From the NCBI GenBank assembly GCA_002401865.1, contig NVUK01000028.1, positions 1-19,961 of the forward strand: a DNA stretch of 19,961 nt, given 5' to 3'. The notes under the pieces are model-generated. The model saw nothing but the letters and a program-made list of their open reading frames with translations, was not told the DNA's origin and did not search any database. This DNA is from Candidatus Aerophobota bacterium. GTDB lineage: Bacteria; Chlamydiota; Chlamydiia; Chlamydiales; Simkaniaceae. Positions 17,794-19,961 of this stretch are shown here, piece after piece (position 1 is the stretch's first letter; each line of letters opens with the position of its first letter). The position numbers and the translations under genes are program-made.

Positions 17794-19377
17794 ATGACAA
17801 GTAACGTGGGTGGAGAGTCTGGGAAAACACCTATTAACCCTCAGTCACAGCCAACAGGTAATCAGATCCCTCAGGCTCAGCGTTCTTCGATGTCTTCTTC
17901 TGGAGCTGGAGCTGGAGCTGGAGCTTCTTCCGGTGCCCTTCCCCAAGAACAGGTAAAGGTGATGGTTTCTGTTGTTAAAGCTACAGCAGGTAGCAGCGGC
18001 GGTGGTGGCGGTAGTGGATCTACTAAGCGAAAAGTAGAGCCTAAAGCAAAAGCCACAGCAGCAGAAGGCGGCGGAGGCGGCGGCGCTGATTCTGGCGGAG
18101 TTGCTAAGAGAGGAAAAGCCACAGCAGCAGCAGGCGGCGGCGGCGGTGCCAACGCGGCCCCTTCGTCTACTCAAATTACCCAATGTTTTGGATCAGCACC
18201 TGAAAGCATGAGTGATTTAGGAGTTGTAGCCCAATTTTGCTTTGACCGTTTTAATGAGAGAATTGTTAGTCCTGTACCTTTAACTACTGAAGAAATAACA
18301 AATTTGCACGAACTGTTTTTTGAAACAACGTTAGAAGAAATATCCAATGAACAATTATCAGCACCTGTAGACCCTCTAAATCCTCATCCAGCGCACGTGA
18401 TTAAATCGTTGCAGAGTTGTATTTCAAGATTAGATGGTAATTGTAGAGAGACAAGAAAAAAACATATGGCCAAGGATGTGCGACTTGCAAACATCTTTGA
18501 TATCCCGGTTACTGACAGATCTAGAGCTCTATCGACAGTAGCAAAATCAGAAGATGGAGCAAAACTTGTTCAACTTTTTCAGGAGGGACCAGTTTACACC
18601 ACACGTGAGCTTTTAGGTTCAAATAATAATAATCCAGCATATATTCTTCATGACGATCAAAATAATCCATCTTGGGTTTTTAAACCCGTTAAAAGAGAAT
18701 TAAGTGCCTCAGAAAGAACAATGTATGAAGTAAAAGGGGATGGAGCTGCTTATAAACAATATTCCTCAGGAGAGCCTTCTGAATTAAGCGCTAAGACCGA
18801 ACATGCTGCTTCTTGTCTTAGTAAGGAAAGATCATTTCCAGTTCCTTGCACTTTGCTAGTAGAAATAAATGGAGATGTAGGGTCAATTCAGATGTATGTG
18901 CGTGGTCAAGATGCAGAAGAAGTTGCACCAGCATCGGCAGCGGCAGCAGCTCTGGCAGAAGAAGAGGCGTTTTCTAAAGATTCACAATCTATGTTAATAT
19001 TTGACTTATTGTTTGCTCATCAAGATCGGCATGGGGATAATTTTTTAGTAAAAATGACAGCAGGAGTACGTCGCCTCTATGCTATTGATAATGAAACGTG
19101 CCTAAGGCCTGATCCCGATAATGATTTAAAGTTAGAGAATAGACCAAATTTTACTGTAGTAAGAGCTTTTAGAGAAGATGTTCAAGAACTTTATTCACCA
19201 GGATCAATCACAGCATATAAAGAAAAAATAATAAGATTAGGGTTGATGAATCCTAGATTAGATAAATGGTTAGAGCATGTATCTAACAGGCTACAACAAC
19301 ACACGCCTACAAGTGGATCTTTAAGCGATTTAGCAGCATCTATTATGCAAGAGTATAAGGACGGGCATTGGATATAA
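17794..19377 (+). CDS. Type II PI4-kinase-like protein with a Gly/Ala/Ser-rich N-terminal linker; copy 2
   Basis: The ATG abuts the SPFH stop (TAAATG). Paralog of 13384-14919: shared ITQCFGSAPESMSDLGVVAQFCF..FNERI, PSWVFKPVKRE, GSIQMYVRGQD, LIFDLLFAHQDRHGDNFLV (the canonical DRHxDN catalytic loop) and LYAIDNETCL. The N-terminal 130 aa are poly-Gly/Ala, encoded by GC-rich simple repeats. Confidence 0.75.
   Translation: MTSNVGGESGKTPINPQSQPTGNQIPQAQRSSMSSSGAGAGAGASSGALPQEQVKVMVSVVKATAGSSGGGGGSGSTKRKVEPKAKATAAEGGGGGGADSGGVAKRGKATAAAGGGGGANAAPSSTQITQCFGSAPESMSDLGVVAQFCFDRFNERIVSPVPLTTEEITNLHELFFETTLEEISNEQLSAPVDPLNPHPAHVIKSLQSCISRLDGNCRETRKKHMAKDVRLANIFDIPVTDRSRALSTVAKSEDGAKLVQLFQEGPVYTTRELLGSNNNNPAYILHDDQNNPSWVFKPVKRELSASERTMYEVKGDGAAYKQYSSGEPSELSAKTEHAASCLSKERSFPVPCTLLVEINGDVGSIQMYVRGQDAEEVAPASAAAAALAEEEAFSKDSQSMLIFDLLFAHQDRHGDNFLVKMTAGVRRLYAIDNETCLRPDPDNDLKLENRPNFTVVRAFREDVQELYSPGSITAYKEKIIRLGLMNPRLDKWLEHVSNRLQQHTPTSGSLSDLAASIMQEYKDGHWI
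17902..17925 (+). repeat. Hexanucleotide microsatellite (GGAGCT)x4 encoding (Gly-Ala)n inside the kinase-2 linker; GGC codon runs follow at 18067-18084 and 18133-18147
   Basis: Read directly from the sequence. The units are multiples of 3, so slippage would change linker length without a frameshift. Confidence 0.8.
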
Positions 19378-19438
19378 TCTATTGATGGGGTATAATGGAC
19401 GTAGGTATAATTTAGATTGTTAAAAAAGGAGTAAAGAA

Positions 19439-19723
19439 ATGACTATACAGTTCTTGATTGATTCTTATAGAAATCAGCCTACAGAATATATAGTAGCTGA
19501 TGTTGTGGAAGTAAATGGTGAAAAAACATTTACGGTTAGAGACGAAGTTCTTCAAAAATTTCTTACAGTGAATGAAAAAACAATGGCAGGGTTTGCAAAA
19601 GAGCTAGAGCAGCGTGGCTCAAGACGGTACCATTGGGTAAGCAAACAAGACTATGATCATCCAGAAGAAGCAATACAGCGGTATGCTGATTATATTCTTG
19701 GCAAAACAAAGTCTTTTTCTTAA
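19439..19723 (+). CDS. Conserved 93-aa partner protein downstream of kinase-like gene copy 2
   Basis: Paralog of 14983-15264. Two TATAAT boxes (19391-19396 and 19406-19411) and AAGGAG lie upstream. Confidence 0.6.
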   Translation: MTIQFLIDSYRNQPTEYIVADVVEVNGEKTFTVRDEVLQKFLTVNEKTMAGFAKELEQRGSRRYHWVSKQDYDHPEEAIQRYADYILGKTKSFS

Positions 19724-19801
19724 AAAAATATTTCTCTATGGTCTTATTGAGCAAAAGTAGAAAGTATATTCAAGTGCGATGCCTTATTTTATCCAGATCA
19801 G

Positions 19802-19843
19802 TTATGCAAGAGTATAAGGACGGGCATTGGATATAATCTATTG
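19802..19843 (+). repeat. Duplicate of the last 42 nt of kinase-like gene copy 2 (identical to 19343-19384); marks the start of a tandem segmental duplication that runs to the window end
   Basis: ttatgcaagagtataaggacgggcattggatataatctattg occurs at both sites. Downstream sequence, including the partner ORF start, is nearly identical to 19385 onward. Confidence 0.8.
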
Positions 19844-19881
19844 TTGAGGTATAATTGCGATTATTAAAAAGGAGTAAAGAA

Positions 19882-19961
19882 ATGACTATACAGTTCTTGA
19901 TTGATTCTTATAGAAATCAGCCTACAGAATATATAGTAGCTGATGTTGTGGAATTAAATGG
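19882..19961 (+). CDS. Third copy of the 93-aa partner ORF, 3'-truncated by the window end
   Basis: Encodes MTIQFLIDSYRNQPTEYIVADVVELN..., differing by 1 aa from copy 2 over the visible part. Preceded by gaggtataat and aaggag. Confidence 0.55.
   Translation, partial: MTIQFLIDSYRNQPTEYIVADVVELN

Follow-up and report, generated by a model that had tools for sequence, protein, structure and literature searches.

A duplicated partner-gene cassette carrying a kinase tail and a predicted promoter on a metagenome-assembled contig

Results

The kinase tail and the partner gene occur twice in direct orientation

The window analysed here is the whole of NCBI contig NVUK01000028.1 (19,961 nt, assembly GCA_002401865.1). 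It holds two genes for kinase-like proteins, K1 and K2, each followed by a small partner gene (P1 and P2), and close to its end the tail of K2 appears a second time, in front of a third partner gene, P3. Throughout the text, P1-P6 are partner genes and K1 and K2 are kinases, copy 2 is the K2-P2 unit and copy 3 is the P3 unit. Judged from three assemblies and from the ends of their contigs, the duplication is confirmed as genuine and not an assembly artefact. The copied unit is, by its predicted features, a self-sufficient expression cassette, made up of a predicted promoter, a Shine-Dalgarno sequence, an open reading frame (ORF) and a 3' flank. P3 is the youngest member of a local family, P1-P6, alongside which there are only two kinases.

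Positions 19802-19961 repeat positions 19343-19518, which comprise the kinase tail, the promoter region, the ribosome-binding site and the start of the partner ORF. The first 42 nt are identical (42/42; 19343-19384 compared to 19802-19843) and consist of the last 10 sense codons and the stop codon of K2 plus 7 nt. To the left, the identity of the two units ends exactly at 19342/19801. The kinase-tail remnant in front of P3 was matched by tblastn to K2 residues 513-527 (E = 6e-4), as a 15-residue match at 19789-19833. A repeat of such length and identity is not expected by chance. An earlier note on this DNA, made from the sequence of the window, had claimed a repeat of the kinase tail from 19802 onward, and this is borne out, with the homology running to the window end. 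The note had also described the differences as a few substitutions and one changed codon. Five substitutions are indeed found inside the window (copy 2 to copy 3: 19385 A>T, 19413 T>G, 19414 A>C, 19419 G>A and 19511 G>T, the last giving V25L in the partner ORF), but the description was incomplete: copy 3 is also without 15 nt of copy 2 (placed at 19388-19402), and the A-run at 19422 differs between the copies by an indel of 1 nt.

Over their full length the units measure 408 nt and 392 nt, start 459 nt apart and are ~94% identical, with 22 substitutions and 2 indels over ~393 aligned positions. The substitutions number 0/35 in the kinase tail, 4/61 in the intergenic region, 13/285 in the partner ORF and 5/27 in the 3' flank. 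The longest identical run is 88 nt and covers the ribosome-binding site and the first 24 codons, which is marginally unusual (P = 0.045). Nucleotides 1-72 of the ORF are identical in P2 and P3, and all 13 ORF differences come later. The copies appear near-identical inside the window because its edge cuts the ORF before most of the differences. The earlier description of the duplication as very recent and near-identical therefore did not hold for the complete units, in which 10/94 partner residues are changed and synonymous divergence (dS) is ~0.05.

The two units are separated by sequence of two kinds. The earlier note had called the ~80 nt at 19724-19801 an unrelated spacer. This is correct for the 51 nt at 19751-19801, but not for the first ~27 nt, which are a flank common to P2-P5: the motif AAAAATATTTCTCTAYRGTCTTA recurs after P3 and P4, and a degenerate version of it follows P5. 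The 23-nt motif had 0 matches in 200 shuffles. The sequences 3' of P2 and of P3 share only this ~23-27-nt motif. The 51-nt filler showed no significant match in the kinases, the joined 34 kb described below or related loci, and its origin as a decayed kinase 3' end was rejected, as the alignment score was no better than that of shuffled sequence. The term tandem duplication is thus apt in that two adjacent, direct, high-identity copies are present, but the arrangement is not a simple one, given the unique filler and the differing 3' sequences. A role of the 3' motif as a terminator or structured RNA was likewise rejected (fold z-scores 0.3-0.8, no Rfam family), and the low neutral divergence among P2-P4 is a better explanation of why it is conserved. 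Both the Shine-Dalgarno region and the 3' motif are better conserved than the proteins because the copies are fairly young and the proteins diverge at or above the neutral rate.

Contig ends indicate two genomic contexts for the kinase tail

The three assemblies compared were made with different software, all from reads of the same sample, and the duplication was judged from their contigs. The NCBI metagenome-assembled genome (MAG) contig and the ENA scaffold_130 (ERZ23500134, 38,937 nt) are separate assemblies, and each of them has P2, the spacer, the kinase tail and P3. The ENA scaffold ends 64 nt past the window (20025), inside copy 3. Logan contig L011 (SRR5988112) matches window positions 6587-19372 without a difference. 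Its end falls exactly 30 nt inside the shared block, and its final 31-mer begins at 19342, the last copy-2-specific base. Logan contigs are constructed with every 31-mer distinct (PMC12424806). Since L011 ends exactly at the boundary, the reads must hold a second predecessor of the kinase tail, and the endpoint provides indirect evidence, at the level of reads, for two genomic contexts of the tail. Another Logan contig, L007, carries the P4-P5-P6 array described below with 0 mismatches in 3,836 nt.

That an assembler laid out one locus, or two strain alleles of it, in tandem is very improbable. Every assembly breaks in or beside the repeat (NCBI contig at 19961, ENA scaffold at 20025, Logan contig at 19372), all assemblies share the reads of one sample, and the shared runs of 88 and 56 nt could permit mis-phasing. 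However, the junctions between P2 flank and spacer and between spacer and tail are unique and are present in two independently made assemblies, de Bruijn contigs hold only k-mers seen in reads, and the end of L011 (k = 31) demands a second tail predecessor in those reads. The copies differ by so many substitutions and indels that they are not a collapsed identical repeat, and mis-phasing would swap segments yet still leave two units. Mis-assembly, which the earlier note had named as the outcome that would overturn its claim, is contradicted by the agreement of the three assemblies and by a contig that breaks exactly at the repeat boundary. The locus can serve as a worked example of how a true repeat and an artefact are told apart without reads, via contig ends from assemblers of different k.

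P3 is an orphan in a six-copy partner array

Scaffold_130 was joined to scaffold_129 (L009) to give 34 kb, and coordinates above 19961 refer to this joined frame. The join is a 55-nt exact overlap; the 55-mer occurs once per scaffold and holds four copy-3-specific differences from its copy 2 counterpart. An exhaustive HMMER search with the partner profile found three further members, all at one end of scaffold_129. Across the 34 kb, tblastn detected exactly two kinases, one kinase-tail remnant and six partner genes. Extending the sequence past the window, a check that the earlier note had proposed, revealed no third kinase; P3 is followed by two ORFans and then by P4-P6 (Table 1). Since no third kinase comes after P3, P3 is an orphan partner copy, as the note had anticipated. 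Its proposal that amplification acts on the partner gene also stands, with six paralogues in ~9 kb and a dS ladder from 0.05 to ~1.

Full-length P3 was absent from the protein collection in an exact-sequence look-up. No family was assigned to the 252-, 297- and 175-aa ORFs of the array, and a derivation of these ORFs from a kinase was rejected, as no BLAST or Pfam relation was found. Long hydrophobic stretches are present in the 175-aa and the 252-aa protein, both of which might be of the inclusion-membrane type. P4 and P6 each stand directly after a non-kinase ORF, as P1 and P2 stand after kinases, and no kinase-tail remnant was seen before P5 or P6. P4 and P5 are basic (isoelectric point (pI) 9.8), compared to pI 5.7-5.9 for P1-P3; both end in a common GKGK tail, and their TAG stop lies 10 nt before the P2/P3 stop position.

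The copied kinase tail carries a predicted promoter

The pattern TTGG(A/T)A, 17 nt, TA(T/C)AAT is conserved at four loci, namely K1-P1, K2-P2, tail-P3 and the unrelated contig L002, and the conserved -35 box overlaps the codon of the kinase's conserved C-terminal Trp. As scanned, the site designated promoter a of P2 reads TGGATA-16-TATAAT, with 10/12 matches. This putative partner promoter is argued from its conservation at these loci. The duplicated unit starts 25 nt 5' of the -35 box, so the copy kept the complete predicted promoter, and 35 nt of kinase would have survived before the kinase-less P3 because the tail holds the conserved -35 box. The GGTATAAT box occurs twice in copy 2, at a distance of 15 nt, and once in copy 3. 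The spacers of K1-P1, K2-P2 and L002 are all 60-63 nt, and therefore copy 3 lost 15 nt.

Table 1. Features of the kinase-partner locus; positions up to 19961 are those of the window and higher ones those of the joined 34-kb sequence
Feature	Coordinates	Strand	Remarks
K1, PI3/PI4-kinase-like (predicted)	13384..14919	+	511 aa; PF00454 39.0 bits (cutoff 27.1); ~110-aa low-complexity N-terminus
Promoter-like site of P1	14913..14941	+	TTGGTA, 17 nt, TATAAT; -35 overlaps final Trp codon and stop of K1 (alignment A6)
P1	14983..15264	+	93 aa; 52% identical to P2; no Pfam or NCBIfam family
K2, type II PI4K-like (predicted)	17794..19377	+	527 aa; PF00454 32.2 bits (cutoff 27.1); residues 1-123 predicted disordered
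Start of duplicated unit 2	19343..19384	+	last 35 nt of K2 plus 7 nt; identical to 19802-19843
Predicted partner promoter a of P2	19368..19396	+	TTGGAT, 17 nt, TATAAT; -35 in K2 codons TGG ATA
Second, overlapping promoter-like site	19382..19411	+	TTGATG, 18 nt, TATAAT; only in copy 2
P2 (PCI76477.1)	19439..19723	+	94 aa; AAGGAG at 19426-19431
Conserved 3' flank of partner units	19724..19750	+	AAAAATATTTCTCTAYRGTCTTA(TTG); ~27 nt
Unique filler between units 2 and 3	19751..19801	+	51 nt
Kinase-tail remnant	19802..19836	+	10 codons and stop, without kinase body upstream; 0/35 differences from K2 19343-19377
Sole promoter-like site of copy 3	19827..19855	+	TTGGAT, 17 nt, TATAAT; 15 nt fewer than copy 2
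P3	19882-20166	+	complete, 94 aa; window part 19882..19961; ends 205 nt past window
ORFan	20227-20985 (L009 257-1015)		252 aa
ORFan	21141-22034 (L009 1171-2064)		297 aa
P4	22093-22380 (L009 2123-2410)		95 aa
P5	22542-22817 (L009 2572-2847)		91 aa
Membrane-like ORF	22957-23484 (L009 2987-3514)		175 aa
P6	23525-23854		109 aa

The partner proteins diverge rapidly within the array

P2 and P3 are 95.4% identical in nucleotide sequence (13 substitutions), and the ratio of nonsynonymous to synonymous divergence (dN/dS, omega) lies near 0.85, within a range of about 0.8-1.0; by this sequence comparison there is no sign of purifying selection on P3 relative to P2. One of the differences, N45H, alters an Asn that all seven other members of the family retain. 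dS is 0.05 for P2-P3, 0.23-0.3 between P2/P3 and P4, 0.5-0.7 for P1 and P5 against the others and ~1 for P6 against the others.

The P2 and P4 proteins are 43% identical, and 35/39 of the conserved residues use the same codon. Conservation by codon position is 0.78 at the third position, compared to 0.69 at the first and 0.64 at the second. Omega for this pair is 1.95 (NG86), 1.82 (LWL85), 1.20 (YN00) or 1.95 (maximum likelihood), and the proportion of nonsynonymous differences (pN) exceeds that of synonymous differences (pS) in all three thirds of the gene (one-sided Fisher p = 0.042). For P3-P4, omega is 1.5-1.6 by three methods (p = 0.135). The between-genome orthologues P2 and L002p give omega of 0.3-0.45, as under ordinary purifying selection. 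The values for P2 and P3 against P4, which most estimators place above 1, suggest diversifying selection.

The kinases resemble type II PI4Ks and belong to a very small family

All four members of the kinase family matched PF00454 above the gathering threshold. The only match of the kinase profile in the PDB is a type II phosphatidylinositol 4-kinase (PI4K), namely PI4K type 2-beta, with the catalytic loop DRxxDN. The catalytic loop of the family aligns to DRGNDNWLV of PI4K2B, and a downstream IDN/IDH motif aligns too. Alignment A4 shows no variation at D411, R412, D415, N416 and D432 (K2 numbering), so that the DRxxxN loop and the metal-binding Asp are conserved. K1 and K2 are thus predicted type II PI4K-like kinases, whose substrate class may be lipid or protein. 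They are 44% identical and diverge along their whole length. In the AlphaFold2 (AF2) model of K2, the overall predicted local distance difference test (pLDDT) score is 48.5, and residues 1-123 have a pLDDT of ~25. The regions coding for the kinase N-termini (13384-13720 and 17794-18165) specify 66-71% G/A/S/P/T/Q with repeated Gly and Ala runs (repeat families D6 and D12), and this composition gives rise to long spurious antisense ORFs at 17845-18183 and 17877-18152.

The family is tiny, with only two relatives elsewhere and ~4 kinase clusters in the homology search. No kinase relatives were found in GTDB genomes, JGI metagenomes or IMG/VR, neither kinase nor partner had a tblastn match in the plasmid collection, and an exact 40-mer of the kinase tail did not occur in JGI metagenomes or GTDB genomes. 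PADLOC returned only weak catalytic-loop matches to PDC-M03A. A literature search on chlamydial PI4K-like proteins and on the MAG retrieved nothing relevant. In another metagenome, a related kinase-partner pair lies on contig L003 (1-7366) among genes for a resolvase, TraD, SSB, DsbB and an AAA-ATPase/PDDEXK protein. Judging from these neighbours, the kinase-partner module may be carried by a mobile element, conjugative or otherwise. In three independent contigs, the L003-type kinase is preceded by a 66-aa ORF.

The partner is linked to the kinase and its structure is modelled with confidence

At all four independent kinase loci a partner homologue is found on the same strand, 60-120 nt downstream of the kinase. 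The exhaustive HMMER search yielded ~5 real partner clusters in 1.84 billion representatives, and outside this genome they occur with the kinase. The partner has no family in Pfam, NCBIfam or PADLOC. The AF2 model of P2 has a pLDDT of 88.5, with the secondary-structure order beta-beta-beta-alpha-alpha-beta-alpha-alpha. A PDB profile search with the partner did not find HipS or the HipA N-subdomain.

Host and other features of the locus

DnaB, encoded on the minus strand of scaffold_129 (L009 9870-11318), is 70% identical to that of Simkania negevensis, and its named best matches are all Chlamydiota (Simkaniaceae, Neptunochlamydia, Parachlamydia and Protochlamydia). The host is a marine Simkaniaceae-like chlamydia, and probably the NCBI label Candidatus Aerophobetes is wrong or the contig mis-binned.

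An older segmental duplication lies upstream of both kinase-partner units (12272-12450 compared to 16052-16284; 75-80% identity; D5, D14). Its second copy runs into a 113-aa ORF (16247-16588), and the counterpart ORF of the first copy is interrupted and followed by a truncated YhcG-type PDDEXK nuclease fragment (12510-12896; profile positions 46-157 only). Within D5, both copies contain a hairpin, TAGCAATG ... CATTGCTA, followed by a T-run (12320-12371 and 16100-16151), which is a candidate intrinsic terminator. The 113-aa ORF contains a 42-nt in-frame tandem repeat (16474-16556; 93%, D15) that doubles the peptide RRLAxDVRxFxNK, and just 5' of it are two 40-nt direct repeats (16144-16236; 88%, 53 nt apart, D16), each with TAGATATAAT.

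Further paralogues are present in the 34 kb. A pair of ORFans of 328 and 355 aa (2073-3059 and 4898-5965; 52% identity) has no Pfam match, and an apparently fragmentary third copy lies at 4373-4487. Between them, on the minus strand, is a tandem pair of 189-aa and 179-aa ORFans (3071-3640 and 3642-4181; 32% identity), also with no Pfam match. On scaffold_129, three tandem paralogous ORFs of 189, 201 and 202 aa (L009 11508-13436; 21-25% identity) have no Pfam match. There, mnmG (gidA; L009 7787-9603, minus strand) is divided into two abutting ORFs of 410 aa (GIDA) and 194 aa (GIDA C-terminal domains), which suggests a frameshift, a pseudogene or an assembly error.

Discussion

As a whole, we consider the following explanation the best and a fairly probable one: the P3 cassette is a real copy of non-homologous origin, the partner is a regulator that binds the kinase, and the orphan copies form a diversifying reservoir. 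A partner cassette of ~400 nt would have been duplicated or inserted beside P2 by an illegitimate, non-homologous event, and as a next step slippage between the GGTATAAT direct repeats plausibly removed 15 nt from copy 3. The partner would be the cognate binding protein of the kinase, a neutraliser or regulator that is possibly HipS-like. Expressed from its own predicted promoter, it would be present independently of kinase transcription. Kinase-less partner copies may then act as a diversifying reservoir, like orphan immunity or antitoxin genes.

Several observations weigh against this explanation. The duplication is not a clean head-to-tail one, with 51 nt of unexplained unique sequence parting the units. 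The promoter scan finds no more sites than in shuffled sequence. The omega values above 1 are pairwise estimates on 91 codons with borderline significance, and by YN00 omega for P3-P4 is 0.8. P2 and P3 share an identical run of 56 nt, longer than k = 55, which means that their 3' ends could be swapped in phase, and a single adjacency in the assembly graph connects P3 to the 252-aa ORF. The second copy would stand in spite of both caveats. The resemblance of the partner to HipS is weak and unconfirmed: Foldseek on the model returned nothing at E <= 0.001, Pfam at E <= 10 gave no Couple_hipA match in 6/6 partner members, and hhalign of the partner against the HipA N-subdomain gave 0.5% probability. 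The kinase matches PF00454 and not HipA_C, with HipA_2 at E = 0.21 in 1/4 members, and no HipB-like helix-turn-helix gene was found accompanying the kinases. Homology of the partner to HipS at the sequence level was rejected from the Pfam, PDB profile and hhalign searches. A HipS-like neutraliser is a lead and not a finding, one that we would put somewhat short of an even chance.

An alternative origin is that P3 belonged to a third full kinase-partner unit, duplicated together with K2-P2, whose kinase was later deleted save for 35 nt. K1-P1 and K2-P2 do show an earlier whole-unit duplication, in a larger segment that includes 12272-12450 and 16052-16284. A deletion could make the unique filler leftover upstream sequence, and selection for the promoter would explain a deletion end-point that spares the tail. 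However, 19751-19801 is unlike anything upstream of or within K1 or K2, and no further kinase fragment is detectable. This origin also takes two events, a duplication and a precise large deletion, compared to one for a partner-only duplication, and P5 and P6 are partner genes in the same array without any trace of a kinase. We therefore regard the loss of a third kinase as unlikely, and retain the duplication of the partner cassette as the preferred origin.

Of similarly low likelihood, and directed at function rather than origin, is the view that the partner, instead of neutralising an effector kinase, acts as its type III secretion chaperone or as an adaptor secreted with it, and that the extra copies serve other effectors, the adjacent 297-aa and 175-aa ORFans. 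The host is a chlamydia, and the disordered kinase N-termini (~120 residues, 66-71% G/A/S/P/T/Q) are of a kind often seen in secreted effectors. P1-P3 are small and acidic (pI 5.7-5.9), and upstream of each of P4 and P6 stands an unannotated ORF of its own, in one case membrane-like. When the partner was compared with the class I type III secretion chaperone pattern (small, acidic, alpha/beta fold, beside an effector), it did not fit.

Gene conversion is less probable still. Here P3 would be an older paralogue, about the age of P4 or P5, recently overwritten from the K2-P2 locus, and its similarity to P2 would stem from homogenisation rather than from a new duplication. This would account for the uneven spread of differences, including the 88-nt identical run (P = 0.045), and the 3' boundary of similarity falls inside the flank motif common to P2-P5, a natural end for a conversion tract. 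Farther downstream, the P3 sequence resembles that of P5 (CTTTCCAAAAA) and the P2 sequence resembles that of P4. The 5' boundary, however, lies in kinase coding sequence, so an orphan locus would have offered no upstream homology to start or resolve the event, and the evidence for clustering is marginal.

As an event, the duplication is ordinary: paralogues have expanded locally in an environmental chlamydia. It is of value in that it exposes a very rare gene pair of which only the small partner was amplified, to 6 partners for 2 kinases. Partner-only amplification, a predicted promoter inside the kinase's final codons and fast protein change together make a pattern that is typical of protective or specificity proteins in conflict systems. 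From this pattern comes a testable hypothesis on the control of a eukaryote-like kinase by an intracellular bacterium. Going beyond the explanation preferred above, K1/K2 and their partners might form an undescribed two-gene conflict or control module of intracellular bacteria, in which a eukaryote-like, type II PI4K-like kinase with an effector-type disordered N-terminus is checked inside the bacterium by a HipS-like protein with its own promoter, and an amplified array of orphan neutralisers is under diversifying selection; this is a speculative proposal to which we give a low probability. If true, the module would connect split-kinase toxin-antitoxin systems of the Hip type to secreted kinases that target the host.

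Among the closest known systems are the split HipA-type kinase toxin-antitoxin modules, hipBST and hipJS, in which HipS is the antitoxin. In hipJS the known order is kinase and then HipS (PMC8262856). Here too the kinase and the partner are adjacent on the same strand, in the hipJS order. In contrast to these modules, in which the kinase is HipA-type and ~280-350 aa long, the kinase described here belongs to PF00454, is type II PI4K-like and has 511-527 aa with a disordered N-terminus. Moreover, HipB is absent here, and the partner, with a predicted promoter of its own, has been amplified to six copies.

Contact-dependent inhibition (CDI) and Rhs loci carry orphan toxin-tip/immunity modules, with arrays of diverged, often fast-evolving paralogues (PMC3150448). 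Likewise, a 3' fragment of the upstream gene is kept here before an extra copy of the small gene, namely the 35-nt K2 tail before P3. The fragment is only 10 codons long, however, and encodes no domain, and it probably serves to carry the -35 box. K1 and K2 also differ in not having polymorphic-toxin architecture, no CdiB, Rhs or VgrG domains occur among their neighbours, and their toxicity is putative. Colicin immunity genes, another class of protective genes, are transcribed from a constitutive promoter that lies within the colicin gene, at its 3' end. The similarity lies in a promoter that is embedded in the end of the upstream gene, so that the product is made independently of that gene; the proteins and their setting differ, and the promoter described here is predicted from conservation only.

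The kinases share the DRxxDN and IDN/IDH motifs with eukaryotic type II PI4Ks, as seen in the PI4K2B alignment, although the similarity is confined to ~70-160 residues at 20-39 bits. Bacterial phosphoinositide-kinase effectors exist, such as LepB of Legionella, and by analogy an intracellular bacterium could plausibly use a PI4K-like enzyme on host membranes. To our knowledge, no partner protein is known for type II PI4Ks or for LepB-like effectors.

Lineage-specific tandem expansions of gene families are a feature of environmental chlamydiae. The partner array resembles them in being a local array of ORFan paralogues, and at least three other tandem paralogue sets lie in the same 34 kb. It differs in that the small partner, and not the enzyme, has been amplified, and in that the protein diverges at or above the synonymous rate.

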